Positions 10,445 through 26,226 of a DNA stretch of 64,000 bases are shown piece by piece; positions within the stretch are counted from its first letter, which is position 1; each line of letters opens with the position of its first letter. Made by a program: the position numbers and the translations under genes. This stretch comes from an uncultured bacterium (GTDB taxonomy: Bacteria; Actinomycetota; Acidimicrobiia; Acidimicrobiales; VFJN01), in the NCBI GenBank assembly GCA_963717085.1, contig CAVQVM010000011.1:233108-297107 (forward strand). Direction: 5' to 3'. The notes under the pieces are model-generated. The model worked only from the letters and a program-made list of their open reading frames with translations, was not told where the DNA came from and ran no database searches.

Positions 10445-11284
10445 TCAGTCGACGAAGTCGGGCACGACCTCGCGTGCGAACCGCTCGACCTGGGCGGCAC
10501 CGGCACCGGGCCAGCCGCACACCAGGTAGTCGTAGCCGGCGTCGCGCCACTTGTCGGCGTGCTTGCGCGCCGTTTGGATGTCGTCTAGCGAGAGCGAGGC
10601 AGCCCGCCTGATGTCGCCGGGATCGCGGCCTGCCTCGACGGCGAGCTGGTCGATGCGCTCGTACGCCTCACGCAGCGAGTTGGGGGTCCCGTACGCGTGC
10701 CACACGTCGGCGTACCGAGCGACGAGCGGGATCGTGCGACGCGGCCCGCTGCCGCCCACCCAGATGGGCGGGCGGGGCTGCTGCACGGGCGTCGGCCGCA
10801 TCTGCGCGTCGCGCAGTGACACGACCCTGCCCTCGTACGACACGACCTCGCCGGTGAACAGGCGGGTCACGATCTCGAGGGTGTCCTCTAGCAGGTCGAA
10901 GCGCTCCCTCGTCGACGGGAAGGGGATGCCGAGCTCGTGGTGCTCCTCGTCGTGCCAGGCCGCGCCGAACGAGAGCTCGAGACGACCATGCGACGCGTGG
11001 TCGACGGTGAGCGCCTGGGCCGCGAACACCGACGGGTGCCTGTAGGTCACCCCTGTCACGAGCAGGCCGAGCCGGATGTGGTTCGTCACTCCGGTCAGGG
11101 CGGCGAGCGTCGTCATGCCCTCGAAGGTCTCCCCCGGGCCTTCGCCGTACATCGGTTGGAGGTGGTCGAAACCCCAGGCGCCGTCGAATCCCAGCTCCTC
11201 GGCGAACCGCACGCGGCGCACGATTTCGTCCCAGGGCATGCGTTGCTGCGCAACATCGAGTCCAAACCGCATGGGCCGGACCAT
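10445..11284 (-). CDS. LLM-class (luciferase-like, probably F420-dependent) oxidoreductase
   Basis: MRFGLDVAQQ...FAEELGFDGAWGFDHL...GRLELSFGAAW. Start uncertain (11308, 11284 or 11272). Confidence 0.8.
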   Translation of the reverse strand: MVRPMRFGLDVAQQRMPWDEIVRRVRFAEELGFDGAWGFDHLQPMYGEGPGETFEGMTTLAALTGVTNHIRLGLLVTGVTYRHPSVFAAQALTVDHASHGRLELSFGAAWHDEEHHELGIPFPSTRERFDLLEDTLEIVTRLFTGEVVSYEGRVVSLRDAQMRPTPVQQPRPPIWVGGSGPRRTIPLVARYADVWHAYGTPNSLREAYERIDQLAVEAGRDPGDIRRAASLSLDDIQTARKHADKWRDAGYDYLVCGWPGAGAAQVERFAREVVPDFVD

Positions 11285-11324: not shown

Positions 11325-11738
11325 TCAGCCGCTCGCCGCGCAGACGTCGGTGTGGAGCCTCGTCAGTGTCGACGACGCGATGCGCCAGCCGTCGCCGACC
11401 TTCTCGTAGGTCTCGTGGTAGTGCCCGTAGCCGTCGAGTCGGGTGCCGTCCGGCCAGATGACGATGTCGTGGAGCGCCCAGACGCCGGTCGCCGTGGTCG
11501 ACGATGTCAGCTCGATCTCGGGCATGTGGCCGTGGTGGACGGTCACCGCGTCGGCGAGCACGTCGCGGAGGAACGCCAGGAACTCGTCGGCGCCGGTGAC
11601 CACGCTCCCGCCCGCGGCGGTGGTGTCCATCACGACGCCCTCGGTGAAGACTCCACGGAACCCTGCCCAGTCCTTGGTGTCCATGGTCCGGAAGTAGCGG
11701 GCCTTCAGCTGCTTGATCGCTTCGACGTCGTCCATCAC
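11325..11738 (-). CDS. SnoaL-like / NTF2-fold protein
   Basis: MDDVEAIKQLKARYFRTMDTKDWAGFRGVF... is a typical SnoaL_4 N-terminus. 4-nt overlap with the upstream SDR. Confidence 0.75.
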   Translation of the reverse strand: MMDDVEAIKQLKARYFRTMDTKDWAGFRGVFTEGVVMDTTAAGGSVVTGADEFLAFLRDVLADAVTVHHGHMPEIELTSSTTATGVWALHDIVIWPDGTRLDGYGHYHETYEKVGDGWRIASSTLTRLHTDVCAASG

Positions 11739-12529
11739 GAGACCTCCGGCGCGGTGGCGAGGCCGCGCAAGCCCTGCACGCAGCCGCCGTCGACGAGGAC
11801 GTCGACACCCGTCAGGAACGACGCCTCGTCCGACACGAGGAACGCGACGACCGCGGCCACCTCCCCGGCCGTGCCGAACCGCCCGATCGGTGTGGCGTCG
11901 AGCAGTACCCGCATCATCGGCTGGGCCTCGAGCTCCTGGCGCCCCATCCCGGTGTCGATGAGCCCGGGCGACACGGACAGCGCCCGGCCGCCACGCGGCC
12001 CCCAGGCGACCGCGGATCGGGCGGCCGCCCGGATGACGCCCCGCTTCGCCCAGGCGTACGCGAGGCCGGGGTCGTCGAACTGCGCGACCACGTCGTCGAG
12101 GAAGCCGTCGGCGGTCGGGTGCTCGACAAGGGCATCCAGGTCGGGGCGTGCGCCCATGAGCTCGACCTGGTGGGCGGCGGTGGACGCGAAGCAGACCGCG
12201 GTCGACCCTGGCTCGACGAGTGGATCGAACGCGTCGAGCAGGAGCTGCGTCCCCACCAGGTCGACCTCGAGGATCCGCCGCACGTCGGCCATCGTCGGCG
12301 AGATGCCCGCGGCGTGTACGAGCGCTCGGAACGGTCCCAGCCGGCGCGCCCTCGACGCGAGCTCAGCGACCGACTCGCGATCGGAGATGTCGCAGGCGAA
12401 ACCGACGGCCCCGTCGACGTCGGGGGCGTCGAGGTCGACGGCCAGGAGGTGGTCGGCACGACCGATGAGGCGTTCGACGCATGCCCGCCCCATCCCGCGG
12501 GCCCCGCCCGTCACCACGATGACGCTCAC
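11735..12529 (-). CDS. SDR-family oxidoreductase
   Basis: N-terminal TGGARGMG dinucleotide motif; 264 aa; SDR-like C-terminal region (FLVSDEASFLTGVDVLVDGG). Confidence 0.85.
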   Translation of the reverse strand: MSVIVVTGGARGMGRACVERLIGRADHLLAVDLDAPDVDGAVGFACDISDRESVAELASRARRLGPFRALVHAAGISPTMADVRRILEVDLVGTQLLLDAFDPLVEPGSTAVCFASTAAHQVELMGARPDLDALVEHPTADGFLDDVVAQFDDPGLAYAWAKRGVIRAAARSAVAWGPRGGRALSVSPGLIDTGMGRQELEAQPMMRVLLDATPIGRFGTAGEVAAVVAFLVSDEASFLTGVDVLVDGGCVQGLRGLATAPEVS

Positions 12530-12642
12530 GGCCGCGCACCGTAGGAGATCCGGTCGGCGCGTGCTGAACGGGCGCTCAGCAGCGCCGGTCGACGACGGCC
12601 GGGCGGCGAGGGCGTCGAGACCGTCCCCGTGGATGGGCGAAC

Positions 12643-12660
12643 TAGTTTGATGTCATACTA
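12643..12660. promoter_or_regulatory. 18-bp palindromic operator candidate TAGTTTGATGTCATACTA, overlapping a TAAAAT -10-like hexamer
   Basis: Half-sites TAGTTTGAT / TAGTATGAC match at 7 of 9 positions. A near-identical copy lies at 16391-16408. Sits 44 nt upstream of the P450 start, in the divergent SDR/P450 spacer. Confidence 0.45.
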
Positions 12661-12703
12661 AAATCGCCATGCCCGGCCGTCACCGGCGCTGAACGGAACA
12701 CTC

Positions 12704-13942
12704 GTGACAGATCTGCTAGCCACGAACTTCTTCCGCGATCGATCCGTGCAGGACGATCCGTATGCGTTCTTCGATGCGGTGCGGGCTCAGTCGCCGGTCT
12801 GGCAGGAGCCGCATTACGGGGTCTTCATGGTGACCGGCCACGAGGAGGCGCTCGCGGTCTACAACGACTCGGCGGCCTTCTCGTCGTGCAACGCGGTGAG
12901 CGGGCCCTTCAAGCGATTCCCCGAGCCGTTCGAGGGCGACGACGTGAGGGACCTCATCGAGCGCTACCGCGACGAGCTGCCGTTCAGCGACCAGCTTCCG
13001 GCGTTCGACCCTCCACGGCACACCGCGCACCGAGCGCTGATGATGCGGCTCTTGACGCCAGGACGGCTGCGGGCCAACGAGGAGTTCATGGGCCGGCTCG
13101 CCGATCGTCAGCTCGACGAGCTGATCGAGGCGGGCAGCTGCGAGTTCATCAGTGCCTACGCCGCACCGTTCACGCTGCTGGTGATCGCCGACCTGGAAGG
13201 CGTCCCCGAGTCCGATCACGGGCTGTTCACCGCCCGACTGACCAAGCTGCCCGAGGACCTGGAGCACAAGCCGCTCGAGTTCCTCTACGAGCAGTTCACG
13301 GCGTACATCGAGGATCGCCGCCGGACGCCACGCGACGACATCATGACGGCGATGGCCACCGCTACCTTCCCGGACGGGTCGACGCCGGAGGTGAACGACG
13401 TCGCGCTGCTCGCCGCGAACCTGTTCGCCGGGGGGCAGGAGACCACCGTGCGATTGCTCTCGTTCGCGCTGCGGATCATCGCGGAGCGACCCGACCTGCA
13501 GGAGCGGTTGCGGAGTGATCGCGACCCCATCCCGAACTTCGTCGAGGAGACGCTGCGGTTCGAGAGCCCGCTCCGCGCGCAGTTCCGCATGGCCAAGGTC
13601 CGGACGACGGTCGCCGGCGTCGACATCCCGGCTGGGAGCACGATGATGCTCCTGCCCGGCGCGGCCAACCGCGACCCGCGCCTGTTCGAGGACCCCCACG
13701 AGTTCGACCTCGAGCGGGAGAACGCCAAGTACCACGTCGCGTTCGGACACGGCATCCACCACTGCGCCGGGGCCCACCTCGCCCGGGCGGAGGGCCGGGT
13801 CACCATCAACCGGCTCCTCGACCGCACCTCGAGCATCACGATCGCGGAGGATGCGCACGGCCCGCCCGGTGCCCGCCGCTACGAGTACCTCCCGACGTAC
13901 TTCCTCCGCGGCCTCGCCAGCCTCCGGCTCAGGTTCGCGTAG
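12704..13942 (+). CDS. Cytochrome P450
   Basis: Heme-binding loop FGHGIHHCAGAHLA, EXXR (ETLRFESP), I-helix AGGQETT. Confidence 0.92.
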   Translation: MTDLLATNFFRDRSVQDDPYAFFDAVRAQSPVWQEPHYGVFMVTGHEEALAVYNDSAAFSSCNAVSGPFKRFPEPFEGDDVRDLIERYRDELPFSDQLPAFDPPRHTAHRALMMRLLTPGRLRANEEFMGRLADRQLDELIEAGSCEFISAYAAPFTLLVIADLEGVPESDHGLFTARLTKLPEDLEHKPLEFLYEQFTAYIEDRRRTPRDDIMTAMATATFPDGSTPEVNDVALLAANLFAGGQETTVRLLSFALRIIAERPDLQERLRSDRDPIPNFVEETLRFESPLRAQFRMAKVRTTVAGVDIPAGSTMMLLPGAANRDPRLFEDPHEFDLERENAKYHVAFGHGIHHCAGAHLARAEGRVTINRLLDRTSSITIAEDAHGPPGARRYEYLPTYFLRGLASLRLRFA

Positions 13943-13959
13943 AGGCCGATCCCGATCGC

Positions 13960-14748
13960 TCAGGTCGGCTCGGGCTTCGAGGCCCCCAGCATCAGCTTGA
14001 TCTGGGACGCCGGAGGACCGGCGGTCGTACCGCCGTCGACGGGCAGCACGACCCCGGTGATCTGAGCGGAGCGATCGCTGGCGAGGAACACGGCGGCCTC
14101 GGCGACGTCCTCGGGCCGCCCGGAGCGCGGGAGCGGCTGCGTCAGCTTCATCACGGAGTCCATGTCGTAGGTCGTCATCGCGGTCCGGATCTGCCCGGGC
14201 ACGAGGCAGTTCACCCGGATGCCGTACTGCGCGACATCGACGGCGATCGAGCGCGAGCTATGGATCACGGCCGCCTTGGTGGCCCGATAGGTGATCAGAC
14301 CGGCGCCCGCGTTGATCCCGGCGGTGGAGGAGGTGTTGATGATCGATCCGCCCCCGTGGGCCTTCATGTGACGAGCGGCGCGCTGCGTGCCGAGCAGGAC
14401 GCCGAGGAGGTTGATCTCCACCACCCGGGTGAAGTCGCTCAGGTCGTCGTGCAGGAAGCGGGTCATCGAGCTGGCGACCCCCGCGTTGTTCGACATCACG
14501 TGCAGCCCACCGAACCGCTCAACGGTGAAGTCGATGAGCGCCTGCACCTGGTCGGCGTCGGTGACGTCGGTCTGCTTGAACGCGGCGTTGTCGCCGAGCT
14601 CGGCCGCCAGGGCCTCGCCCGCCTCGGCGTCGATGTCCGCGACGACCACGCTCGCGCCTTCTTCGACGAACCGCTCGACGCTGGCGCGACCGATGCCGCT
14701 GGCACCGCCCGTGACGATGGCGACCTTGCCGGCGAGCTCCTCAGCCAT
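13960..14748 (-). CDS. SDR-family oxidoreductase
   Basis: True start is MAEELAGKVAIVTGGASGIGRA (ATG 14748). Also NNAG and the YxxxK region (YRATKAAV). The longer ORF up to 15186 is a shadow extension. 8-nt overlap with the upstream gene. Confidence 0.9.
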   Translation of the reverse strand: MAEELAGKVAIVTGGASGIGRASVERFVEEGASVVVADIDAEAGEALAAELGDNAAFKQTDVTDADQVQALIDFTVERFGGLHVMSNNAGVASSMTRFLHDDLSDFTRVVEINLLGVLLGTQRAARHMKAHGGGSIINTSSTAGINAGAGLITYRATKAAVIHSSRSIAVDVAQYGIRVNCLVPGQIRTAMTTYDMDSVMKLTQPLPRSGRPEDVAEAAVFLASDRSAQITGVVLPVDGGTTAGPPASQIKLMLGASKPEPT

Positions 14749-16381
14749 CGACCGCTCCTCCCTGCACTTGGGTTCCCGCCGCCTCGCCGGCGATGTGACC
14801 CCACACGAGCGCCATGCCGATGGTCGTTCCGCCGCCGAAGTAGGCCGGGCCGGCGGGGCTGGCGATGACGTTACCGGCCCCGTACAGACCCGGGATCGGG
14901 CGGTCGCGCACGTGTTGCACGCGACCGTGGGCGTCGATCCGGGGACCGCCGCTGGTCCCGACGGCGCCCAGGTGGACCGGCAGCGCGTAGTACGGCCCGC
15001 GTTCGAGGCTGCCGAGGTTCGGATGGGCGGCCGTCGGGTCACCGTGGAACCGGTCGTAGACGCTGTCGCCGCGACCGAAGTCCCGATCCCGGCCCTCGGC
15101 GACGAAGCCGTTCCAGCGGTGGACGGACTCGCGGAGCCCGGCGGCGTCGATGCCCGTGGCGGCGGCCAAGCCGTCGAGCGTGTCATGGACGAGCAGCCAG
15201 TCCGGATCGGGCGATCCGGGTCGCGCGCTGATCACGGGGTACCGCGACCGGTACTGCTGGTCGAACACCACCCAGCACGGAAGGTGGCGGGGCGAGGCGT
15301 CGTTGGCGTCGAAGGCGAAGAACGCCTTTTGCATGTCGTTGTAGTTGGCGGCCTCGTTCACGAACCGGCGCCCGAACCGGTCCACCATGATCGAGTGCGG
15401 GGCGGTGCGCTCCACGGCGATGAACCTGGCGAGCGGCCGCCCGTCGTACTCCTCGCCGGGCACCGCGCCGGCGGGATACCACCACGCCTCGTTCATGTTC
15501 GCCAGGTCGGCACCGACCTCCATCGCCATCAGCAACCCGTCGCCCTCGTTGCCCGGTGGGCTCGTGGGGTGCGTCAGCGGCCCGGGCAGGAACCGCGAAC
15601 ACAGCTCGCCGTTCCACTCGTAGCCGCCCGAGCCGAGCACCACGGCGCGGGCCGGCAGGTCGGCCCGCCGGCCGTCGCGCTCGACGACGAGCCCGGCCAC
15701 CGCGCCGTCGTGGACGATGAGCTCAGCGGCCCGCGCGCCGAGGACGGGCTCGATGCCGCGTGCCAAGCAGCCCTCGAGGAGACCGCCGACCAGGGCTTGT
15801 CCGCACGCGACCTGCTGCGCCTGGACCCGCCGCTTGATCTCGGCGGCGTCGTACCGCTCGGGCGTGTACGACGGGCGCCACTCGACGGTGGACTCCTGCA
15901 GGGTGAGCGGCAGGCCGAGCACGGGCGCGCGGCGCAGCGCCTTCGCCCAGTCGCCGAGCCGACTCGTGTCGTAGAGGGCGGGCTCGATCATCCGACCCGT
16001 GGCGCGGGCGCCCTCCATCTCCGGGTGGTAGTCGGGCCAGGCGATCGGCGCGAAGCGGACACCCGAGCGCCGCTCGAGGCCGGCGACGATGCCAGGTCCC
16101 TCGGCGACGTAACGGGCCAGCTGCTCGGCCGGCGCGCGACCGCCGCTGAGCGCAGCCATGTACACAAGCGCTTCCTCGCCGGAGTCGCCCGCACCCGTGA
16201 CGTGGTTGCCGGGCATCCACACGCCGCCACCGGACACCGCGGTCGTCCCGCCGAGCGCCTCGGCCCGTTCGACGACCGTCACCGTCGCGCCGGCATCGTG
16301 GGCCGCCAGGGCGGCGGCGAGGGCGGCCGCCCCGGTTCCGACGACGATGACGCGTGTCTCCGGGATCGGCCCCGTGGTCAC
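14741..16381 (-). CDS. FAD-dependent oxidoreductase, 3-ketosteroid dehydrogenase / fumarate-reductase flavoprotein-like
   Basis: VIVVGTGAAALAAALAAHDAGATVTVVERAEALGGTTAVSGGGVWMP is an FAD_binding_2-type N-terminus. GTG start at 16381 has no obvious SD, so it may be leaderless. Confidence 0.85.
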   Translation of the reverse strand: MTTGPIPETRVIVVGTGAAALAAALAAHDAGATVTVVERAEALGGTTAVSGGGVWMPGNHVTGAGDSGEEALVYMAALSGGRAPAEQLARYVAEGPGIVAGLERRSGVRFAPIAWPDYHPEMEGARATGRMIEPALYDTSRLGDWAKALRRAPVLGLPLTLQESTVEWRPSYTPERYDAAEIKRRVQAQQVACGQALVGGLLEGCLARGIEPVLGARAAELIVHDGAVAGLVVERDGRRADLPARAVVLGSGGYEWNGELCSRFLPGPLTHPTSPPGNEGDGLLMAMEVGADLANMNEAWWYPAGAVPGEEYDGRPLARFIAVERTAPHSIMVDRFGRRFVNEAANYNDMQKAFFAFDANDASPRHLPCWVVFDQQYRSRYPVISARPGSPDPDWLLVHDTLDGLAAATGIDAAGLRESVHRWNGFVAEGRDRDFGRGDSVYDRFHGDPTAAHPNLGSLERGPYYALPVHLGAVGTSGGPRIDAHGRVQHVRDRPIPGLYGAGNVIASPAGPAYFGGGTTIGMALVWGHIAGEAAGTQVQGGAVDG

Positions 16382-16390
16382 GTTGACGGA

Positions 16391-16408
16391 TAGTACGACA
16401 TCAAACTA
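16391..16408. promoter_or_regulatory. Second copy of the 18-bp operator candidate (minus-strand reading TAGTTTGATGTCGTACTA)
   Basis: 17 of 18 identical to 12643-12660. Lies 10 nt upstream of the GTG start at 16381 and contains a TACTAT -10-like hexamer. Sits in the divergent spacer to the amidohydrolase operon. Confidence 0.45.
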
Positions 16409-16583
16409 AACACGGGTACACGAGAGGCCGAGCGGATAGGCCCGCAAGTGGGAACAGAACATTACGGGATTTGCACCGTGAGCCAGGCAACACAGCTCGG
16501 CCTCCGGGAGCGCTGACCACGGTGAGACCCGACAACGTGCCTATCCGCACAGGTCCTAAGGCGCGACGGGGGATGGAGGTCGC

Positions 16584-17756
16584 ATGACGGCTCAGGTAGG
16601 CACGGTCACCTATCCCCGGGATGGGTTCGGTGCCCCGAAGGACCGGCAGGGGCACGCGACCGGGTCGGTGGGTCTGCCGGCGGGTACGGAGGTCTTCTCC
16701 GCGGACGACCACATCTCGCTCGCCGAGGACATCTTCTACGAGCGGTTCCCGGACTCGCTGAAGGAAGAGGCACCCCGCGTCATCTACGACGACGGGGCCT
16801 GGACGCTGGGCTTCGGCGGCAAGTCGCTCCTCCCGAGGGAGTTCAACGCGGTGCTGATGCAGTACGACCCGCTGGCTGGTTCCAGCACCAGCGACATCGG
16901 GGCCCGCCTCGGCGAGCTGGAGTCGGACGGCATCCACCGGGAGCTCGCCTTCCCGAACGCCATGCTCGCCCTGATGGGGTGGCCCGACAAGGCCATCCGG
17001 GAGCGCTGCTTTCGCATCTACAACGAGCACATCGCCGAGCTGCAGGAACAGTCGAACGGCCGCTTCCATGGCGTCGGGATGGTCAACTGGTGGGACGGCG
17101 AGGGGTGCCGCCGGACGCTGGCCGAGATGAAGGACCTGGGCCTGAAGACGTTCTGGCTGCCCCTCAAGCCCGGGGCAGGCGAAGACGACAAGCCGATCGA
17201 CTACAACAGCCCCGCCATGTACCCGGTGTGGGAGGCCATCGAGGAGAGTGGCCTCCCGGTGGCGCACCACATCGGCGAGGCTCCGCTGTCCTCGCCGTGC
17301 CGGGACAACAGCATCCTCGTCGGCATGGTGCACAACGTGGCGCCGTTCCGCGAGATGTTCGGCCGCTACGTGTTCGGCGGGATCCTCGATCGGCACCCCG
17401 GCATCACCGTGGGCTGGTTCGAGGGCGGCATCAATTGGGTCCCGGCGGCGATCCAGGACGCGGAGCACCTCTACGCCTCGCTGCAGCACATGGCCGACCA
17501 CGGGCTCGACCACGATGTCGCCCACTACTGGCACCAGCACATGTACGCGTCGTTCATGGTCGACCCGCTCGGGCTGGAGATGATCGACCGGATCGGGCTC
17601 GAGCGGGTGATGTGGTCGTCGGACTACCCGCACAACGAGAGCACCTTCGGCTACTCGGAGCGGTCGCTGGCCAGCGTGGTCGGGGCCGTCGGGCCCGAGG
17701 ACGCCGTCAAGATCGTGAGCACGAACGTCACGACGTTCCTCGGCCTCGACACCTGA
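16584..17756 (+). CDS. Amidohydrolase-2 family protein (ACMSD/LigW-like metal hydrolase/decarboxylase fold)
   Basis: SADDHISL near the N-terminus, AHHIGE, and a C-terminal MWSSDYPHNEST motif. Confidence 0.85.
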   Translation: MTAQVGTVTYPRDGFGAPKDRQGHATGSVGLPAGTEVFSADDHISLAEDIFYERFPDSLKEEAPRVIYDDGAWTLGFGGKSLLPREFNAVLMQYDPLAGSSTSDIGARLGELESDGIHRELAFPNAMLALMGWPDKAIRERCFRIYNEHIAELQEQSNGRFHGVGMVNWWDGEGCRRTLAEMKDLGLKTFWLPLKPGAGEDDKPIDYNSPAMYPVWEAIEESGLPVAHHIGEAPLSSPCRDNSILVGMVHNVAPFREMFGRYVFGGILDRHPGITVGWFEGGINWVPAAIQDAEHLYASLQHMADHGLDHDVAHYWHQHMYASFMVDPLGLEMIDRIGLERVMWSSDYPHNESTFGYSERSLASVVGAVGPEDAVKIVSTNVTTFLGLDT

Positions 17757-18991
17757 TGAGCGCGGCGCTCACCGACGTGTCCGGGACACTGGGCCTCCCC
17801 GCGCCACCCGACCCGGCCCGGATGCGGCGCGAACGCGGCGTGCGGCTGCGAGCGGCGATGGCGGACAAGGGCATCGACGCGCTGGTCCTGCTCAGCAACA
17901 GCAACGTGACCTACGCGACCGGCGCCAGCTGGCCGCTCAGCGACCACGGCCGGGGCAACGTCGAGCGCCCGGTCGCCGTCGTCCTCGCCGACGACGATTT
18001 GCCGCACCTGTTCACGCCCTTCGCCGCCGACGTCGCAACCCAGCTCGATCTCGATGAGGACCACCTCCACGGCCCGACCTACCTCGACGTCGGCGAGGGC
18101 GTCGCCGCCTTCGCCGCTGCGCTGGCGGGGCTCGTGCCCTCCACGGCGACGTTCGCGATCGACGATGTAACCGGGGCGATGCACGGTGCCCGGGACACCT
18201 TCTTCGCCGAGTGGCCGCCGCGAAGCGCCAGCGACGTGATGGGCCCGGCCCGCCTGATCAAGACCCCCGACGAGCTCGCCTACCTCCGCCACGGGCTGTG
18301 GATCACAGAGCAGGCCATGGCCGACGTCGAGGCCCGGCTCGCGCCGGGAGCGCGCCAGACCGACCTGACCGCAACCTTCCTGCACCGCGTGTTCGAGCTC
18401 GGGGCCGAGGCGAACGTCCTCGATCCGATCTGGCAGGTGATGCCGGACCGGCAGGCCGACCTGCCGTGGACCACCCACGGCGACCTCGCCTGCCCGCTGC
18501 TGAGCACGGAGCGTGAGCTACATCGGGGCGACGTCCTCTGGGTGGACACCGGCATCAGCTTCGGCGGGTTCCACTCCGACTTCGGTCGCACGTGGGTCGT
18601 CGGCGCCGAGCCCACCGACCGACAGCAGGCCCAGCACCAGCGATGGTGCGACATCAATGACGCCGTGGTGTCGGTCATGCGCGCCGGCGTGTCCGCCGCC
18701 GATCTCACCGCAACCGCGAAGGAGGTGTGCGGCGGGGACCAACCCTGGATGTCGCACTTCTACCTGGGCCACGGCCTGGGCCTCGACAGTGCGGAGGCGC
18801 CGTACGTCGGCACCGACCTCGGCGACGGCTACGACCGACGCCTCGTCCTCGAGGCCGGCACGGTGGTCGTGATCGAGCCCGTCGTGTGGGACGAGGGGCA
18901 CAGCGGCTACCGGTCCGAGAACGTCTTCGTCATCACCGACGACGGCTGCGTGAACCTCACCGACTACCCCTACGACCCGTATGGCGACTGA
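17756..18991 (+). CDS. M24-family (creatinase/prolidase fold) hydrolase, metal ligands apparently intact
   Basis: ATG 17756 overlaps the previous TGA by 1 nt. Creatinase_N-like start (GIDALVLLSNSNVTYATG). Pita-bread motifs WVDTGISFGGFHSDFGRTW, GHGLGL, VIEP, SENVFVIT. Confidence 0.8.
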   Translation: MSAALTDVSGTLGLPAPPDPARMRRERGVRLRAAMADKGIDALVLLSNSNVTYATGASWPLSDHGRGNVERPVAVVLADDDLPHLFTPFAADVATQLDLDEDHLHGPTYLDVGEGVAAFAAALAGLVPSTATFAIDDVTGAMHGARDTFFAEWPPRSASDVMGPARLIKTPDELAYLRHGLWITEQAMADVEARLAPGARQTDLTATFLHRVFELGAEANVLDPIWQVMPDRQADLPWTTHGDLACPLLSTERELHRGDVLWVDTGISFGGFHSDFGRTWVVGAEPTDRQQAQHQRWCDINDAVVSVMRAGVSAADLTATAKEVCGGDQPWMSHFYLGHGLGLDSAEAPYVGTDLGDGYDRRLVLEAGTVVVIEPVVWDEGHSGYRSENVFVITDDGCVNLTDYPYDPYGD

Positions 18992-20105
18992 ACCTCTCCC
19001 GGACCCCAAGGCCCTCCGGTACGCACGCCGCGAGCGGGCGTTGGCGGCGATGGAGGCGCACGACCTCGACCTCCTCGTGCTGGGGCGGGTCGCCAACATC
19101 CGCTACGTGTCCGGGGTGCCGGTGCTGTGGAACGCCGGTACGCGCCCGTTCGGGCCGGGCGCCGTGTTGGTGCGCGCCACGGGAGCGGTCCATCTGATGA
19201 GCACGTGGGACGAGGGGGTTCCGGAGGAGATACCCCACGACCACCTCTACGGGATCACCTGGAACCCGATGAACTACGTCGCGGCGCTCGAGCGGATCGG
19301 TGCCGACGTGCAGCCGCGCCGGGTCGGGACGGACGCGATGTCGCCGCTGTTCGCCCAGTTGCTGCCGATGGCGTTCCCGAGCGTGGCGATCGTCGACGGA
19401 GGGCCGGCGCTGCGCGACGCCAAGCGCATCAAGACGAACGAGGAGGTCGACGCGATCCGCGCCGCCCTCGTGGTCGCCGAGGCCGGGCTGGCCGCGGCGG
19501 TGGCCGAGCTTCGGCCCGGGGTGAGCGAGCGCGAGCTCACCGGTGTGTTCATGGATGCGATGGCGACCCGCGGCGTCACGACGCCGGCGACGCAGGACGT
19601 CGTCCGCATCACCACGGCTCGCGCCGCTCGCGAGGCCGGCGGTGACGGACGCGTGCAGGCCGGTGACCTCGTGGCATTCGACGCCGGGGTCGTCGCCGAC
19701 GGCTACGCCGGCGAGACGGGACGCACCTGGCCGGTCGAGCCGAACGGAACCGGGGGCTCGCTGGGCAAGCTCTACGAGCGATGGGAGCGACTGTGGGAGC
19801 GGCTGCTCGAGGCCTGCCGGCCCGGCGCAACGGGCAGTGGGCTCCTCGAGGCGTACGGGGCCGCTGGCGAGCCGCTCCCGCAGAGGCCGATCGGGCGCGG
19901 GCTGGGACTCGGCTTCGACGATCCGGTGATCGTCGGCGACCTGCCCGCGACCGCTGCCGACGAACGGCTGGACCCCGGCGTCGTCCTCGTCGTGACCGGA
20001 TGCGTCACCGACGACCGCGTCGCCACCGTCACCGCGCACGAAGCCGTACTCATCACCCCCGACGGGGCCGAGGTCCTGTCGGGCAGCCCGTTCTGGAACC
20101 GCTAG
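18981..20105 (+). CDS. M24-fold paralogue with degenerate metal-ligand positions
   Basis: 11-nt overlap with the previous gene. AFDAGVVADGYAGETGRTW, GRGLGLG (His position is Arg), VVTGC (Glu position is Thr), AHEAVLIT. Confidence 0.75.
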   Translation: MATEPLPDPKALRYARRERALAAMEAHDLDLLVLGRVANIRYVSGVPVLWNAGTRPFGPGAVLVRATGAVHLMSTWDEGVPEEIPHDHLYGITWNPMNYVAALERIGADVQPRRVGTDAMSPLFAQLLPMAFPSVAIVDGGPALRDAKRIKTNEEVDAIRAALVVAEAGLAAAVAELRPGVSERELTGVFMDAMATRGVTTPATQDVVRITTARAAREAGGDGRVQAGDLVAFDAGVVADGYAGETGRTWPVEPNGTGGSLGKLYERWERLWERLLEACRPGATGSGLLEAYGAAGEPLPQRPIGRGLGLGFDDPVIVGDLPATAADERLDPGVVLVVTGCVTDDRVATVTAHEAVLITPDGAEVLSGSPFWNR

Positions 20106-20289
20106 TGGGCGCTCGCGGAAGTTCCGTGGATGTATCGCCGCGGCAGATTCGTCGCTGGCAAGGACGCAGGAGGAAGGCGCAGCCAGCGGCTGCGGCGACG
20201 ACGAGGACGATGTCCAGCGGCGCATCTGGCCGGCGAGACGCCACGATGACTTCCGCGAGAGCCCACTTACAGCCCGGAGGGGCGACGAC

Positions 20290-21243
20290 ATGACCGACGA
20301 CACCAATGAGGAAGCGGACTGGATCCGCTACGTGAAGGATCCGGCGACCAAGATCGCGACCCTCACGTTGAACCGGCCCGACCGGCTCAACGCACCGACG
20401 ATCGCTATGCGGCTCCGGTACGCCGACCTGCTGCACCAGGCGAACATCGACGACGACGTGAAGGTCCTCGTGATCCGGGGCGAAGGCGACGACTTCGGCA
20501 GCGGGCAGGACCTCCCCGAGTTCATGGAGGCGCACGGGACCGACGATGGCCTCCTGCGCGAGGTGCAGCTCGAGGGAGCCGACGTCACTTATCCCCCCCG
20601 GCGCCAGTTCCGGCACGGCGCCACGGCCACCCAGTGGTTCGCCGATCCGCGGGGCGGCTGCCGGACCCTGCAGGAGTTCAAGAAGATCAGCATCGTCGAG
20701 GCAAAGGGCTATGTGTACGGCTGGCACTTCTACCAAGCCGGTGACGCCGACCTCGTGATCGCATCAGACGATGCCCTGTTCGGCCACGCCGCATGGCGCT
20801 ACGCGGGCACGGCGCCCCGCATGTGGTGGTGGGCGATGTCGATGGGCATCCGCAAGTTCCAGGAGATGGTCTTCACCGGCCGGCCCTTCACGGCCGCGGA
20901 GATGGCCGAGCTCGGCTTCGTGAACAGCGTGGTGCCGCGCGATCAGCTGGAAGCCGAGGTCGACAAGTACGCGACGGCGTGCGCCCAGAACCGGTCGACC
21001 GACGTCGTCTTCATGCAGAAGACGTTCTTCGAGATCATGAAGCAGTTCCAGGGCGAGTACATGGGGAGCCTGCTCACCGGTGTGCTCGAGTCGCTGGCGC
21101 CCTATGGCCGGCCCGACACCAACGAGCTGACCGTAACCAAGGGGATGTTCGAAGAGGGGATGACGAAGGCCGTCAAGGACTTCGACACCCGCTTCCCGCC
21201 CGAGTGGCGACTCAGCAAGAAGGGGCGCGAAGCGGCCGAGTGA
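20290..21243 (+). CDS. Enoyl-CoA hydratase/isomerase (crotonase) family protein
   Basis: IATLTLNRPDRLNA...VKVLVIRGEGDDFGSGQDL and a crotonase-fold length of 317 aa. Confidence 0.85.
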   Translation: MTDDTNEEADWIRYVKDPATKIATLTLNRPDRLNAPTIAMRLRYADLLHQANIDDDVKVLVIRGEGDDFGSGQDLPEFMEAHGTDDGLLREVQLEGADVTYPPRRQFRHGATATQWFADPRGGCRTLQEFKKISIVEAKGYVYGWHFYQAGDADLVIASDDALFGHAAWRYAGTAPRMWWWAMSMGIRKFQEMVFTGRPFTAAEMAELGFVNSVVPRDQLEAEVDKYATACAQNRSTDVVFMQKTFFEIMKQFQGEYMGSLLTGVLESLAPYGRPDTNELTVTKGMFEEGMTKAVKDFDTRFPPEWRLSKKGREAAE

Positions 21244-21255
21244 GGGAGCCGGTCC

Positions 21256-23646
21256 ATGACCGCGGCGCCGCCGCTCGATGACCTCGTCGTCGTCGATCTC
21301 TCCAGCGGGATCGCCGGCGCCTACTGCACGAAGATCCTCACCGACGGCGGCGCGGAGGTCGTCAAGGTGGAACCCCCGGAGGGCGATACGCTGCGCCGCT
21401 GGTCGGCGTCGGGGGCAGTGATCGCCGAGGGCGGCGAGGGCCCGCTGTTCACCTTCCTCGCGTCGGGGAAGCAGCGCCTGGTCGCCAACCCCGACGACGG
21501 GGAAGACGTCAAGCGCGTTCGTGCCCTCTTCGGGCGTGCCGATGTGGTCGTCTGGTCGAGGGGATCCCGGCTCGCCGAGTGCCCCGCGTTCTCACCGGAC
21601 GCGATCCGCCGCGTTGGACCGCACCTGACGGTCACATCGATCACGCCGTTCGGGTTGGAGGGACCGTGGTGCGACCGCGCCGCCACGGAGTTCACGCTCC
21701 AGGCGTGGTCCGGGGGGATCGTGGGCCTCGGGCGCGGCGCCCCGGACCGGGCGCCAATGTTCGTCGGCGGGCAGATCGGCGAGTGGCTCACCGGCACCTA
21801 CGCGGCGATCGGGACGATGGCCTCGCGGGCGCGCGCCCGGCACGACGGTGCGGGTGAGCTCGTCGACGTCTCGATGCTCGAGACGCTCGGCCTGTGCCTC
21901 ACCTACTACCCCGTCACGTACCACGACATGGTCGGTCGGCCGTTCCGGAGCGGACGATCCACCATCACCCCGGGCGTGGAGACGACGAGCGACGGCCTCG
22001 TCGGGCTCGGGGTGGGCACTGGCCAGCAGTGGCACGACTTCTGCGTGATGGTCGGGCACCCGGAGTGGATGGCGGACCGCTCCCTGTTTGCCAACCGCGC
22101 ACACCTGGGGCCGGACATCGCAGCCTGGGCGGCCGAGCACACCACCGCCGAGATACTCGAGCTGGCGGGCACGTGGCGCATCCCGCACGCGCCGATCGGC
22201 AACGGCGCCTCGATCCCGACGACCGACCACTTCGCGGCGCGCCGGTCGATCATCCGGAACGGTCGGGCCGGCGTCGCCGAACCCGACCGCCCCTACCGCT
22301 TCGTCCCGCCGTTGCTCAGCTCCCCCGCCGGCGCTGAGGCCCCGACGACCGAGGTGCCGGCGCCGAGCGCGCCCACGGATGCGCCCGAGCTGCCGTTCGA
22401 GGGTCTCCGGGTGCTCGATCTGACCGCCTTCTGGGCCGGCCCGCTGTGCACGCACGTGCTGGCGATGCTGGGGGCCGAGGTCCTCCACCTCGAGTCGACG
22501 GCCCGCCCCGATGGCACTCGTCTGCTCGCCGGGCTGCGGTTCTCGGAGCCCGACTGGTGGGAGCGGTCGGGGATCTTCGCCGGCCTGAACACCAACAAGC
22601 GGGGCCTGACGCTCGATCTCGTCAGGGACGAAGGGAGAGGGCTGCTACGGCGCTTGATCGCGACCTGCGACGTCGTCGTCGAGAACCACACGCCGCGAGT
22701 GCTGGATCAGCTCGGGTTCGATGCCGACGCCGTGCGCGCCATCCGGCCCGACATCGTCATGGTGCGCATGCCCGGCTTCGGGCTCGACGGCCCGTGGCGG
22801 GACGACCCGGCCTTCGCCTTCGTCATCGAGGACGCCTCGGGGCTGACCTGGATGACCGGTTACCCGGACCGGAACCCGGTCTCGCCGTACTGCGTCGGCG
22901 ACTCGAACGCGGGTCTCCACGCACTGAGCGGCCTGCTCCTCGCTCTCGAACACCGCCGGCGCACCGGCGAGGGCGTCGTCGTGGAAGCCGCGATGGTGGA
23001 CGCGGCGCTCAACGTCGCCGCGGAACAGGTCGTCGAGCACTCGGCGCATGGAGCGCTGCTCGGGCGGGATGGGAACCGGGGACCGACAGCGGCGCCGCAG
23101 AACCTCTACCTCACCTCCGACGTCGACGAGGCCGGTGCGCGCGACACATGGGTGGCCATCGCGGTCGCGAGCGACGAGCAGTGGCTCGCACTCCGTGGCG
23201 CGCTCGGTGAGCCGGGGTGGGCGATGGAGCCGGGGCTGGCGACGGAGTCCGGTCGGCGACGCCACCACGACGCCATCGATCGCCACCTTGGCAGCTGGTG
23301 CGCCGAGCGGCCGGCCGACGAGATCGTCGACTGCCTCTGGGGTGCCGCCGTCCCCGTGGCGCGGGTGATGCAGCCCCACGAGCAGGCGACGCTGCCGCAG
23401 TTGCAGTTCCGTCGCTTCTTCGAGGAACTCGACCATCCGGTCACGGGGACGGCTCGGCACAGCACGCTGCCGATGCGGTTCTCGCGCGGGCCCGACCGCT
23501 TCCACCGACGCCCGGCCCCGCTCCTCGGCGAGCACACCGACGAGGTGCTGCGCGGCCTCGGGGTCTCTGACGATGAGCTCGCACGGCTCCAGGAGGACGG
23601 CGTCATCGGCCGCACGCCGGATGCCGCGAAGAGCGCCAGCGGATAG
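21256..23646 (+). CDS. Family III (CaiB/BaiF) CoA-transferase, two fused modules
   Basis: Two N-terminal-type signatures: LVVVDLSSGIAGAYCTKILTDGGAEVVKVEPPEGD and LRVLDLTAFWAGPLCTHVLAMLGAEVLHLES. 796 aa. Confidence 0.85.
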   Translation: MTAAPPLDDLVVVDLSSGIAGAYCTKILTDGGAEVVKVEPPEGDTLRRWSASGAVIAEGGEGPLFTFLASGKQRLVANPDDGEDVKRVRALFGRADVVVWSRGSRLAECPAFSPDAIRRVGPHLTVTSITPFGLEGPWCDRAATEFTLQAWSGGIVGLGRGAPDRAPMFVGGQIGEWLTGTYAAIGTMASRARARHDGAGELVDVSMLETLGLCLTYYPVTYHDMVGRPFRSGRSTITPGVETTSDGLVGLGVGTGQQWHDFCVMVGHPEWMADRSLFANRAHLGPDIAAWAAEHTTAEILELAGTWRIPHAPIGNGASIPTTDHFAARRSIIRNGRAGVAEPDRPYRFVPPLLSSPAGAEAPTTEVPAPSAPTDAPELPFEGLRVLDLTAFWAGPLCTHVLAMLGAEVLHLESTARPDGTRLLAGLRFSEPDWWERSGIFAGLNTNKRGLTLDLVRDEGRGLLRRLIATCDVVVENHTPRVLDQLGFDADAVRAIRPDIVMVRMPGFGLDGPWRDDPAFAFVIEDASGLTWMTGYPDRNPVSPYCVGDSNAGLHALSGLLLALEHRRRTGEGVVVEAAMVDAALNVAAEQVVEHSAHGALLGRDGNRGPTAAPQNLYLTSDVDEAGARDTWVAIAVASDEQWLALRGALGEPGWAMEPGLATESGRRRHHDAIDRHLGSWCAERPADEIVDCLWGAAVPVARVMQPHEQATLPQLQFRRFFEELDHPVTGTARHSTLPMRFSRGPDRFHRRPAPLLGEHTDEVLRGLGVSDDELARLQEDGVIGRTPDAAKSASG

Positions 23647-23790
23647 GCACGTCCCCTTTGGCTCACGGTGGTCAGCGCCGCCGGAGGCCCAGCAGTTGAG
23701 CTGCGGCCCAGCAACAAATCCCGACGCGGGGGTGCCCTTGGCAACGCCCGATCCGCTGGGCCTCGAAACGGAGCAAGTAGGTTCCAGCCG

Positions 23791-24297
23791 GTGTCACACC
23801 AGCTCCGCTACGACCCGGTCGAGGCATCGCGCCAGCGGTGGATCGAACAGGGCTGGGACGAGAGCGCGCCGGGCATGGCCGCCGTCGTCTCGGTCATGCG
23901 GGCCGAGCAGATCTTCCTCCACCGGGCAACCGGGATCCTGCGTCCGCTCGGCCTGACGTTCGCCCGGTACCAGGTGCTCGGGATGCTGCGCTGGACGGGT
24001 CCGCTGACCCTCGGCGCGATCGGCCACCGGCTCTGGATCACGCCGGCGACGGTGACCAGCGCGATCGATCGACTGGAGGCGGCGGGTCTGTGCCGCCGCG
24101 CCTCCCACCCTCGGGACGCCCGCGCCACGCTCGTCGAGATCACCGCCAAGGGACGACGCCTGTTCGACCGCTCGGTCGAGAAGCTGAACGCCGACCTGTT
24201 CGGCACGGTCGGCCTCGCGGAGGAGGAGCTCGACCTGCTCGTCGGGCTCATCAGGAAGATCCGTGCCGGCGAGGGCGACGTCGTCGAGCTGAGCTGA
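23791..24297 (+). CDS. MarR-family transcriptional regulator
   Basis: LGLTFARYQVLGMLRWTGPLTLGAIGHRLWITPATVTSAIDRLEAAGLCRR. I prefer the GTG at 23791 over the ORF-track start at 23668. Confidence 0.75.
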   Translation: MSHQLRYDPVEASRQRWIEQGWDESAPGMAAVVSVMRAEQIFLHRATGILRPLGLTFARYQVLGMLRWTGPLTLGAIGHRLWITPATVTSAIDRLEAAGLCRRASHPRDARATLVEITAKGRRLFDRSVEKLNADLFGTVGLAEEELDLLVGLIRKIRAGEGDVVELS

Positions 24298-24351
24298 CGC
24301 CACGCCTGCTCCGCCGGTCGGCGGTGCTGACCAGGACGGACGGGTCGGGCC

Positions 24352-25020
24352 TCAGGCGCCGGGCGCGCGCCCCTCCCGGACGGCGTCATGAAGCAGGCCG
24401 ATGACCCAGGCGATGCCGGCGATGGCCTCGTCTCGATCGAGCTCCCAGTCCACCGCTAGGCGCTCGTAGACCGCCACACCCCAGAGCACGTCGAACATCG
24501 CCGCCGCCACGGAGCGATCCGCCTCGGTCCACCCCGCCGTATGGGGTCCCAGCGCCCGTAGGAGCGCCTCCCGCTGGCGCCGGCCAGCGGCGGTGAGGGT
24601 CGGGTCCAGCGGAGCGTGCCGCTCGAGCGGGTGCGAGGCGACGGCCGTGACGATGCGGCCGGCCACGTCGGCGATGCCTTCGAGCTGCAGCCGGTCGAGG
24701 TCGATGCCGGCCCGCTGCTCGAGGCGGTGCATGACGGCGTCGCGCAGCCCGCGCTCGTTTGCGAGGTGGCGGTAGACGGTGCGCTCGTTCACGCCCGCTC
24801 GCTTGGCCACGGCACGCACGGTGAGGCCGCGCCAGTCCCGGATCGCCGACGCACCGAGGAGCTCGCACCCGGCGGTCACGATCCGATCACGGGTCTCGGA
24901 CGCCCGCTGCTGGCGCAGCGTGCTGTCGTAACGGCGGCGTGCCGGCGCCGATTCGGGGCTCGGCGCCTCGCTCGCGCGCATCGCTCCCATGTTCCTAGGC
25001 CCCGGCCACCTGGCCGCCAC
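24352..25020 (-). CDS. TetR-family transcriptional regulator
   Basis: HTH region LTVRAVAKRAGVNERTVYRHLANERGL. The start could be one of the internal Met codons. Confidence 0.8.
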   Translation of the reverse strand: MAARWPGPRNMGAMRASEAPSPESAPARRRYDSTLRQQRASETRDRIVTAGCELLGASAIRDWRGLTVRAVAKRAGVNERTVYRHLANERGLRDAVMHRLEQRAGIDLDRLQLEGIADVAGRIVTAVASHPLERHAPLDPTLTAAGRRQREALLRALGPHTAGWTEADRSVAAAMFDVLWGVAVYERLAVDWELDRDEAIAGIAWVIGLLHDAVREGRAPGA

Positions 25021-25029
25021 GCGAGCCGG

Positions 25030-26226
25030 TCACGGTGTGCGCACCGGCAGCCTGTCCCAACCTCGGACCGTGGAGGTCGGGGCCAGCGTGGCGCCCTCCC
25101 AGTCGACGTCCCACTCGGGGAAGCGCTCGAGCACCTCCTCGAGGGCCACCCGCCCTTCGAGGCGAGCCAGCGCGGCACCGAGGCAGTAATGCGTCCCGAA
25201 ACCAAATGTGAGGTGCGAGCAGTTGCTGCGGTGGATGTCGAACGTGTCGCCGTTCGGGTTCTTGCGGTCGTCCCGGTTGGCGGAGCCGATGAGGCAGAGG
25301 AGGGCGCTGCGGGCCGGCACCGTCTGGCCCTGGATCTCTGCGTCCTTGGCGACGTAGCGCCCCACGTGGGGGGCTGGGGGCTCGAAGCGGAGGAGCTCCT
25401 CGATGGCGCCCGGGATGAGCGCGTGGTCATCGACCAGCTCGCGGCGCTGGTCGGGGTGCTCGGCCAGGACCTTCCCGGCCCAACCGATCAGCCGGGTCGT
25501 GGTCTCGTTGCCGGCACCCGACACCACCGTGATGTACGTGAGCAGCTCGTCACGGCGCAGGCGACGGACGGTGCCCGTCTCGTCCTCGAACTCGGCGTTG
25601 AGGAGGTCGGTCATGATGTCGTCGGACGGGTGCTCGGCCCGCCAGTCGATGTAGTCGGCGAACTGCTCCCCGTTGGCGAAGTCCTCCGACACCTGCATTG
25701 GCTGGCCGGCCTCCGTGCGGAGGTTCTCGTCGACGCGGTCGCGGATCCTCGGCTGATCCTCCTCCGGAATCCCCAACAGCATCCCGATCACCCGCATAGG
25801 CATCTGCGCCCCGAGATCGGCGACGAAGTCGAAGCCACCGGCGCCGACGAACGGATCCAGGCTCCGGGCGCAGAGCTCGCGGATCCTCGGCTCGAGCGCG
25901 GCCACCTTCTTGGGTGTGAACACCCGTGACAGCAGGCTGCGATGGATGGTGTGGGTCGGCGGGTCCTCGAAGATGACCACCCCGGGAGGCATCTCGATGT
26001 TGGCCTTGATCAGCTCGAGGATCCCGCCCCGGCCCGAGATGAACGTGTCCCGCTCGACGAGGCCGCGCTCGACGTCCTCGAAACGGCTCACCGCGTAGAA
26101 GTCGTGCGGCTCGTTGTAGTAAAGCGGTGCCTCCTCCCGCAGCCGGCGGAAGACGGGGTACGGATCCCGGTCGATGTCGACGTCGTACGGGTCGTAGTAG
26201 ACGTCCCTCGCCGTGCTTGTCGTCAC
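25030..26226 (-). CDS. Cytochrome P450
   Basis: Heme loop FGFGTHYCLGAALA, EXXR (EELLRFEPP), I-helix AGNETT. Confidence 0.92.
   Translation of the reverse strand: MTTSTARDVYYDPYDVDIDRDPYPVFRRLREEAPLYYNEPHDFYAVSRFEDVERGLVERDTFISGRGGILELIKANIEMPPGVVIFEDPPTHTIHRSLLSRVFTPKKVAALEPRIRELCARSLDPFVGAGGFDFVADLGAQMPMRVIGMLLGIPEEDQPRIRDRVDENLRTEAGQPMQVSEDFANGEQFADYIDWRAEHPSDDIMTDLLNAEFEDETGTVRRLRRDELLTYITVVSGAGNETTTRLIGWAGKVLAEHPDQRRELVDDHALIPGAIEELLRFEPPAPHVGRYVAKDAEIQGQTVPARSALLCLIGSANRDDRKNPNGDTFDIHRSNCSHLTFGFGTHYCLGAALARLEGRVALEEVLERFPEWDVDWEGATLAPTSTVRGWDRLPVRTP

Follow-up and report, generated by a model that had tools for sequence, protein, structure and literature searches.

KstR, a repressor of the TetR family, recognizes a 14-bp motif, TnnAACnnGTTnnA. 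That string occurs in PMC1995591, and the 14-bp consensus of KstR2, likewise a TetR-family repressor, is AnCAAGnnCTTGnT (PMC3068626). In both systems a locally encoded repressor acts at a palindromic operator found at several, often divergent, promoters of a catabolic cluster (PMC3068626). The MarR family, whose dimers usually bind palindromes of 16-18 bp (PMC6391409), includes PcaV, the protocatechuate regulator of Streptomyces coelicolor, an autoregulated repressor with two palindromic operators conserved across species that the pathway substrate dislodges from DNA (PMC3616709). It also includes CouR (Rhodococcus jostii RHA1 and Rhodopseudomonas palustris), FerC and HcaR, repressors for which a CoA thioester intermediate is the releasing ligand (PMC5487221). 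Another S. coelicolor protein, SCO5413, is described as a widespread actinomycete MarR regulator of unknown function (reference 28 of PMC3616709), and we found no operator for it in the literature consulted. Here we describe a 64-kb stretch of DNA (the window) from an uncultured soil actinobacterium, which the names of close homologues and loci place in the Acidimicrobiales/Microthrixaceae, in which two nearly identical 18-bp palindromes lie at promoters of a catabolic gene cluster. Sequence comparison indicates that this palindrome is quite probably the operator of the MarR-family protein encoded at 23791-24297, acting as a repressor.

The first site, operator O1, is TAGTTTGATGTCATACTA at 12643-12660 on the plus strand, 43 nt 5' of the start codon of a cytochrome P450 gene; the second, operator O2, lies at 16391-16408 and reads TAGTACGACATCAAACTA on the plus strand and TAGTTTGATGTCGTACTA on the minus strand. 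The original prediction, made from the letters of the window, had placed imperfect palindromes identical at 17 of 18 bases at these two positions, and we recovered them exactly so, with 6-7 of 9 symmetric pairs in each. It had also judged a chance origin to be very unlikely. When up to three mismatches were allowed, O1 and O2 were the sole matches in the window and none was expected, there being no match in 100 dinucleotide-preserving shuffles; the degenerate pattern TAGTNTGANNTCANACTA again returned O1 and O2 and nothing else; and a symmetric weight matrix derived from 10 sites gave them 33.3 and 32.5, the runner-up position in the 64 kb scoring 8.5. Both sites are intergenic, O1 between the start of a short-chain dehydrogenase (SDR) gene (12529, minus strand) and the P450 GTG (12704), and O2 between the GTG of a FAD_binding_2 'KstD-like' gene (16381, minus strand) and the ATG of an amidohydrolase gene (16584). 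Because their flanks are unrelated and the likeness ends at the edges of the 18-mer, they are not parts of a duplicated segment. The 18-bp dyad is of the size (a palindrome of ~16-20 bp) appropriate to the operator of a MarR dimer. As had been supposed, the motif is that of neither KstR nor KstR2: the window holds no match to either consensus, and in more than 100 related loci we found 5 scattered matches to the KstR pattern and 0 to the KstR2 pattern.

These loci (denoted by L numbers) form four sets, the neighbourhoods of P450 homologues, of 80 amidohydrolase homologues in species-representative genomes, of metagenomic MarR homologues, and of 3 more MarR orthologues that lie on long contigs. 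P0033, P0062 and two collection scans gave access to the orthologous loci. The site survey spans the fetched loci with ~10 kb on either side, for a total of 1.72 Mb. Over this sequence the distribution of matrix scores splits in two, and all sites scoring at least 19 are at promoters in loci that bear the MarR gene. Fifteen MarR-bearing loci contain 1-3 such sites each, as against 0 of 70 loci, mostly of Mycobacterium and Nocardia, that have the core operon and lack the MarR gene. The site-bearing loci are L001/L002, L003/L005, L004, L006-L008, L010, L017, L020, L027, L084 and L102-L104. When every open reading frame between 6 and 28 kb of the window was tested in the same manner, only the MarR gene was present in all of the motif-bearing loci (10/10) and in none of the motif-less ones (0/70). 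What the DNA shows directly is the sites, their conservation, where they stand relative to consensus hexamers, and the fact that they occur exclusively together with the MarR gene.

Gene calls for the window cluster were made from GC content at third codon positions (GC3 framing) and Pfam, and are as follows.

11735-12529, minus strand: SDR1, the upstream short-chain dehydrogenase
12704-13942, plus strand: cytochrome P450, CYP150-like, a single-gene unit under O1 (Pfam PF00067)
13960-14748, minus strand: SDR2, second gene of the divergent unit
14741-16381, minus strand: FAD_binding_2 'KstD-like' dehydrogenase (Pfam PF00890, 3.2e-70)
16584-17756, plus strand: Amidohydro_2, first gene of the operon 16584-23646 (Pfam)
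17756-18991, plus strand: M24/creatinase-like protein a, M24a (Pfam)
18981-20105, plus strand: M24/creatinase-like protein b, M24b (Pfam)
20290-21243, plus strand: enoyl-CoA hydratase (Pfam)
21256-23646, plus strand: fused two-domain class III CoA-transferase (Pfam)
23791-24297, plus strand: MarR-family regulator, last gene of the operon (PF01047)
24352-25020, minus strand: TetR1
25030-26226, minus strand: second P450
26299-26994, minus strand: TetR2

The MarR domain was recognized with E-values of 1.3e-11 (PF01047) and 1.5e-9 (PF12802), and its start at GTG 23791 was set by alignment of orthologues, which begin (M/V)-x-x-x-L-x-YDPVEASR. The gene order from the amidohydrolase to the CoA-transferase is the same in L001, L003, L005-L008, L084 and L102-L104. 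In the divergent unit, the KstD-like gene and SDR2 share 8 nt, the stop of the former overlapping the start of the latter just as in L001, and the KstD-like GTG lacks a Shine-Dalgarno sequence and is 10 nt from O2.

Across the related loci two positions of the site are conserved, one upstream of the CYP150-like P450 and one upstream of the amidohydrolase operon. An O1-type site with one substitution lies 45-75 nt 5' of the P450 orthologue in L001, L005, L006 and L008, and the P450-upstream site is diverged in L007 (3 substitutions) and L104. The gene 5' of the P450 varies by locus (a peptidase, another P450 or a Rieske oxygenase; SDR in the window), and because the site keeps its distance to the P450 whatever this gene is, O1 belongs to the P450 promoter; the start of SDR1 is 114 nt from O1. 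The association also survives rearrangement. In L010, L017, L020 and L027 the operon is split, with M24a, M24b, the CoA-transferase and MarR on one strand and the amidohydrolase and hydratase on the other, and sites are present upstream of both units; a third site lies in the P450/SDR spacer of L020 and L027 and beside an SDR2 homologue in L010. L027 is a metagenome-assembled genome (MAG) of the Frankiaceae, a lineage apart from the Acidimicrobiales/Microthrixaceae loci. In L104 the P450 gene is directly behind the MarR gene and has its own operator 50 nt upstream (10618-10635 of that locus), and in L103 two operators lie 40 bp apart in the amidohydrolase spacer (2968-2985 and 3008-3025). Lastly, L052 encodes a MarR that is 44% identical to that of the window; there the matrix gives its highest score, 13.7, to a diverged palindrome, TGCTACGAAGCCGAAGTA, in the same promoter position, and the recognition helix of the L052 MarR differs too.

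From 19 distinct sites we derived the half-site T1 A2 n3 T4 w5 y6 G7 A8 y9 (TAnTwyGAy), in which T4 and G7 are invariant, position 4 being T in 38/38 half-sites. The full site is TAnTwyGAy-rTCrwAnTA, two half-sites of 9 bp, and as the proposed MarR operator we give the 18-bp consensus as TAsTwyGAy-rTCrwAsTA.

The core operon itself (amidohydrolase, two M24 proteins, hydratase and CoA-transferase) occurs widely among Actinomycetota, many species of Mycobacterium and Nocardia being examples, and among the loci fetched the MarR gene is confined to Acidimicrobiia, some uncultured Actinomycetota and the one Frankiaceae MAG. Loci with the core operon and no MarR gene (L009, L011-L016, L018, L019, L021-L026, L028-L051 and L053-L083, many of them from Mycobacterium, Nocardia, Williamsia and Rhodococcus) retain the operon at 64-70% identity. 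They contain neither the motif nor KstR or KstR2 consensus sites, and therefore the pathway must be under different regulation there.

The position of the site relative to promoter elements was examined in the window and its relatives, and the elements assigned in the window are the following.

16383-16388, plus strand: -35 hexamer TTGACG of the amidohydrolase-operon promoter
16407-16412, plus strand: inferred -10 hexamer TAAACA of the amidohydrolase promoter, placed by alignment with relatives
12654-12659, plus strand: candidate P450 -10 element CATACT, within O1, read from sequence
12659-12664, plus strand: candidate P450 -10 element TAAAAT, overlapping the end of O1, read from sequence
16390-16395, minus strand: TACTAT, candidate leaderless -10 element of the KstD-like gene, 8 nt from its GTG, read from sequence

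At the amidohydrolase promoter of the window, TTGACG is followed by 2 nt, by O2, and by a -10 element that begins with the last TA of O2. TTGACr (TTTGACA in L006) stands 2 nt before the operator in all of the 15 amidohydrolase promoters inspected, that of L052 included; the -10 element of the relatives is TAAATT, TAATCT or TAAATA, and a promoter scan of L027 calls TTGACA-18-TAAATT around the operator. The M24a promoter of the rearranged loci consists of TTGACA, 1 nt, the operator and TAATCT (3 loci; TAAAAA in L017). At the P450, the TAAAAT that the original prediction had described as overlapping O1 is indeed present, 40 nt 5' of GTG 12704. CATACT is invariant at the P450-proximal sites of the close relatives L001 and L005-L008, and a promoter scan of L007 calls GTGACA-17-CATACT, so that CATACT within O1 is the likely -10 element of the P450 and the overlapping TAAAAT the alternative. 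Consensus hexamers flank or overlap the site in every locus inspected, and at the amidohydrolase, M24a and P450 promoters the operator would accordingly overlie the predicted -35/-10 spacer together with part of the -10 element. This arrangement supports a conserved promoter at O2 that lies on the plus strand and would drive the operon from the amidohydrolase to MarR.

On the opposite strand of O2, the leaderless promoter of the KstD-like gene put forward in the original prediction is plausible (TACTAT, 8 nt, GTG, no Shine-Dalgarno sequence). The hexamer had been reported as contained in O2; it is present (16395-16390 on the minus strand), with its last T one base beyond the 18-mer. L004 has TAATAT, 8 nt and GTG ahead of its KstD-like gene, and in L084 the operator and the context of the KstD-like GTG are identical to those of the window. 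The window, L084 and L004 have one type of FAD_binding_2 gene facing the amidohydrolase (84-92% identical, with a leaderless GTG). In most relatives a distant paralogue (36% identical) with an ordinary leader stands there instead; in the other Microthrixaceae compared (L001, L005, L008 and L052) the gene at that position is 35-37% identical and begins with an ATG led by a Shine-Dalgarno sequence. It looks as if the gene was replaced by a distant paralogue while the operator was retained.

We also considered the 169-nt leader of the amidohydrolase, which showed no unusual stability when folded as RNA (z = -1.5). When 12300-16900 and 19900-24400 were scanned with Rfam, no match rose above the threshold or above chance level (asX3, E 0.34; Guanidine-II, E 0.034), and the long leader is therefore no known riboswitch. 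The Guanidine-II match, at 22794-22839 on the plus strand, scores 25.7 bits against a gathering score of 32, lies inside the coding sequence of the CoA-transferase, and is most likely due to chance.

Compared with the described systems, the proposed arrangement shares with KstR and KstR2 the local repressor and the recurrent palindrome, and KstD-like, P450, SDR and CoA-transferase genes are common to those clusters and to this one (PMC3068626); those regulators, however, are TetR proteins with 14-bp motifs, whereas here a MarR protein and an 18-bp site are involved. As in the case of PcaV, an actinobacterial MarR, here a proposed repressor, is associated with a catabolic operon and with two conserved palindromic sites near promoters. 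The PcaV operators are 20 bp long with a TCAGxxxxCTGA core and both lie in the divergent pcaV-pcaI spacer (PMC3616709), whereas here 18-bp TAnTwyGAy sites lie 3.7 kb apart at two promoters and the marR gene is last in its operon rather than divergent; the similarity of the window MarR to PcaV (4FHT) is weak, at E 7.4e-5. The operon resembles those of CouR, FerC and HcaR in encoding a CoA-activating enzyme and an enoyl-CoA hydratase (here the CoA-transferase and the hydratase), but the similarity to CouR is again weak (6C28, E 6.4e-5) and the pathway is not one of hydroxycinnamate catabolism. With the UrtR subfamily (HucR, PecS and MftR), whose consensus is TxxCTx8AGxxA (PMC11602129), the system has in common an 18-bp palindrome with 9-bp half-sites, T1, A18 and an N-terminal extension of the regulator (PMC11602129, PMC6391409). 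A resemblance to the HucR operator had led us to consider membership in this subfamily, which we rejected in view of the missing protein-contacted C4 and G15: these bases are required in UrtR sites, whereas T4 and A15 are invariant here, and there are no urate-related genes nearby.

The closest solved structure is that of SCO5413. The window MarR matches 52 distinct MarR chains of the PDB at E<1e-3, most strongly 4B8X (S. coelicolor SCO5413; E 6e-27, residues 26-164). In addition, metagenome loci L090-L095 encode a clade of paralogous MarR proteins that are 49-51% identical to the window MarR and whose likeness to SCO5413 was judged by eye. The paralogues and the window MarR share a recognition-helix pattern, TP/HP-x-(T/S)VT-x-x-(I/V)DRLE, and an N-terminal DP(V/I)E-x-x-R-x-x-W-x-x-x-GW that falls outside the 4B8X alignment. 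In L090, L092 and L093 the paralogue adjoins icmF, the gene for fused isobutyryl-CoA mutase (IcmF), rather than an operon of the kind found in the window; because the window MarR is in a different operon, it probably belongs to a sister group of the SCO5413-like paralogues rather than being their orthologue. Just 5' of icmF in each of these three loci is an 18-bp palindrome of the same geometry (L090 8550-8567, L092 10445-10477 and L093 6780-6797). That of L090, TAGTTGTATGTCCTACTA, matches each window site at 15/18 positions, and those of the other two loci match less well. These palindromes would link sites of this kind with the MarR subfamily in a second, unrelated gene context, at three loci, and the icmF-upstream palindrome may be the operator and target of the SCO5413-like group.

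Our model for the cluster is as follows, in which we infer the binding of DNA by MarR, the sign of its action, the transcription starts and the inducer. A MarR dimer on O2 would fill the spacer between the -35 hexamer TTGACG and the -10 element of the operon promoter, and the start codon of the KstD-like/SDR2 unit, which is divergent, would be 10 nt away from it. O1 would be bound by another dimer, which would cover the -10 element of the P450 promoter. Bound MarR would thereby exclude RNA polymerase from these promoters. The idea of a single repressor over both promoters, already present in the original prediction, agrees with the one conserved palindromic operator that overlaps promoter elements at each. 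The number of targets had been put at no fewer than four transcription units, which we revise: control of the P450 and of the amidohydrolase operon is supported and that of the divergent KstD-like/SDR2 unit is likely, but that of SDR1 is unsupported. Because marR is within the operon, the circuit would be autoregulated. An inducer would free the repressor, most likely an alicyclic or terpenoid-type substrate or a CoA thioester produced by the CoA-transferase of the operon. Because the operon has a CoA-transferase and a hydratase, and because the paralogues adjoin icmF, an acyl-CoA is a reasonable guess.

The nature of the substrate is suggested by the enzymes. Homologues of the window P450 carry the JGI label 'P450 family 150 subfamily A5', and the single lead on the pathway in the CYP150 literature is that CYP150A5 of M. 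marinum hydroxylates beta-ionone (PMC6237146), an activity that we take as a hint of alicyclic or terpenoid substrates and not as an identification. The best NCBIfam matches of the KstD-like protein are 4-oxocyclohexanecarboxylate 2-dehydrogenase and 3-ketosteroid dehydrogenase, both under the cut-off, and the KstD-like and SDR proteins together have their best scores, also sub-cut-off, against dehydrogenases of the cyclohexanecarboxylate pathway. From the beta-ionone activity of the M. marinum family member and these sub-cut-off cyclohexanecarboxylate-dehydrogenase matches, an alicyclic ring seems to be what the pathway acts on. No match was obtained when the window P450 and P0001 were looked up by exact sequence.

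Regulators other than the MarR protein were weighed as well. The original prediction had listed the MarR and both TetR proteins as candidates, and of these we retain the MarR (10/10 versus 0/70, as above). An assignment to one of the neighbouring TetR genes (24352-25020 or 26299-26994) has in its favour that TetR operators are likewise short palindromes at divergent catabolic promoters, as in the case of KstR2 (PMC3068626), and that homologues of TetR1, which adjoins the MarR gene in the window, are present in L084 and L005. Those are, however, the only two other loci with a TetR1 homologue, TetR2 has no homologue in any locus searched, and in eight motif-bearing loci (L006-L008, L010, L017, L020, L027 and L102) no homologue of TetR1 or TetR2 could be detected within 10 kb. 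Because the TetR genes are not conserved alongside the motif we rejected them, and consider this assignment very unlikely. A regulator encoded elsewhere, with the MarR co-occurrence reflecting shared ancestry of the cluster, is somewhat easier to entertain given that ~20 kb per locus is in view and that the correlation is partly phylogenetic. Yet the pairing of MarR and site outlives rearrangement and is found in the Frankiaceae MAG as in the Acidimicrobiales/Microthrixaceae loci, a diverged MarR is paired with a diverged site in L052, and the paralogous clade at icmF has a related palindrome, all of which makes a distant regulator unlikely.

The sign of regulation and the reality of the site as a binding site were considered in the same light. 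Some MarR proteins activate transcription, and position alone cannot fix the sign of regulation; but the site occupies the predicted -35/-10 spacer and runs into the -10 element, as is typical of steric repression, whereas activator sites usually lie upstream of the -35 element, so that an activating or dual role for MarR has little probability. That the repeat binds no protein at all, and is instead a chance repeat, part of a core promoter or one end of a mobile element, could be argued from its overlap with promoter hexamers and from the small inserted repeats that occur nearby in the window. Against this, no chance matches are expected, the likeness is limited to 18 bp with dyad symmetry, and the site keeps its place even where the flanking sequence of a locus has diverged; moreover, the inserted repeats are unrelated to the operator in sequence and are absent from relatives that retain it. 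We regard this last possibility as extremely improbable.

Several points nevertheless weigh against repression by MarR at O1 and O2, the account that we prefer. Its support comes from sequence comparison in an uncultured MAG, and the regulon is seen within the fetched loci. The co-occurrence of MarR and motif is partly confounded by phylogeny, because the MarR-less loci are mostly Mycobacteriales. The -10 element TAAACA of the window is a poor match to consensus, and a promoter and terminator scan of 12400-16700 made no call at O1 or O2, the promoter assignment being based on alignment with relatives and on the scan calls in L027 and L007. A 140-nt insertion parts the promoter and operator from the first gene of the operon. 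There is no site directly upstream of marR, where the 144-nt spacer holds an inserted repeat, and autoregulation therefore hinges on co-transcription across this spacer. Finally, the icmF-linked sites score low on the matrix of the window clade (15.9, 8.5 and 0.9).

The insertions themselves merit description. A repeat of ~130-140 nt is present in two copies, at 16420-16560 (plus strand) and ~23639-23789 (minus strand), both absent from L084, the closest relative (87-96% amino-acid identity over shared genes). The first copy lies in the 5' leader, where the gap from site to ATG is 175 nt as compared with 49 nt in L084; the second lies between the CoA-transferase and MarR genes and supplies the stop codon of the CoA-transferase. 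Blocks common to both copies are GGCCTCCGGnnGCGCTGACCACnGTGAG and ACGTGCCTATCCGC. A search with a profile of the repeat recovered the two copies with E-values of 3.6e-34 and 1.4e-33 and found no further copy in the window or in the ~100 loci, and the repeat has no Rfam match; it looks like a small element of the miniature inverted-repeat transposable element (MITE) or repetitive extragenic palindromic (REP) kind. A third insertion relative to L084, of ~165 nt (20104-20270), lies between the M24b and hydratase genes and trims M24b by ~7 codons. It is a long imperfect palindrome with a predicted hairpin of -107 kcal/mol and 19-nt terminal inverted repeats that are 95% complementary, and its sequence is unrelated to that of the ~130-140-nt repeat. 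Three small insertions within the intergenic gaps of one operon are unusual.

We found no earlier description in the literature of the MarR/operator pair in this cluster, the design of which is in itself ordinary and of a textbook kind. A broader proposal is that the window MarR and the SCO5413-like MarR proteins form one subfamily with a common 18-bp palindrome of the TAGT-N10-ACTA type and with sensing of acyl-CoA, one branch controlling icmF and the other the present pathway of P450, dehydrogenase and CoA-transferase, which would act on an acid of alicyclic or terpenoid type. We offer this tentatively, with rather more doubt than confidence; were it true, the SCO5413 group would gain an operator, a regulon and an effector class, possibly its first. 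The icmF palindrome next to the SCO5413-like proteins is, in any case, a lead on a widespread actinomycete regulator. For the window cluster, which is conserved, uncharacterised and abundant in soil Acidimicrobiia, the analysis provides a testable model comprising a regulator, two operators and a promoter layout. The MarR protein and its 18-bp operator together make a compact part and a candidate biosensor for the substrate of the pathway.

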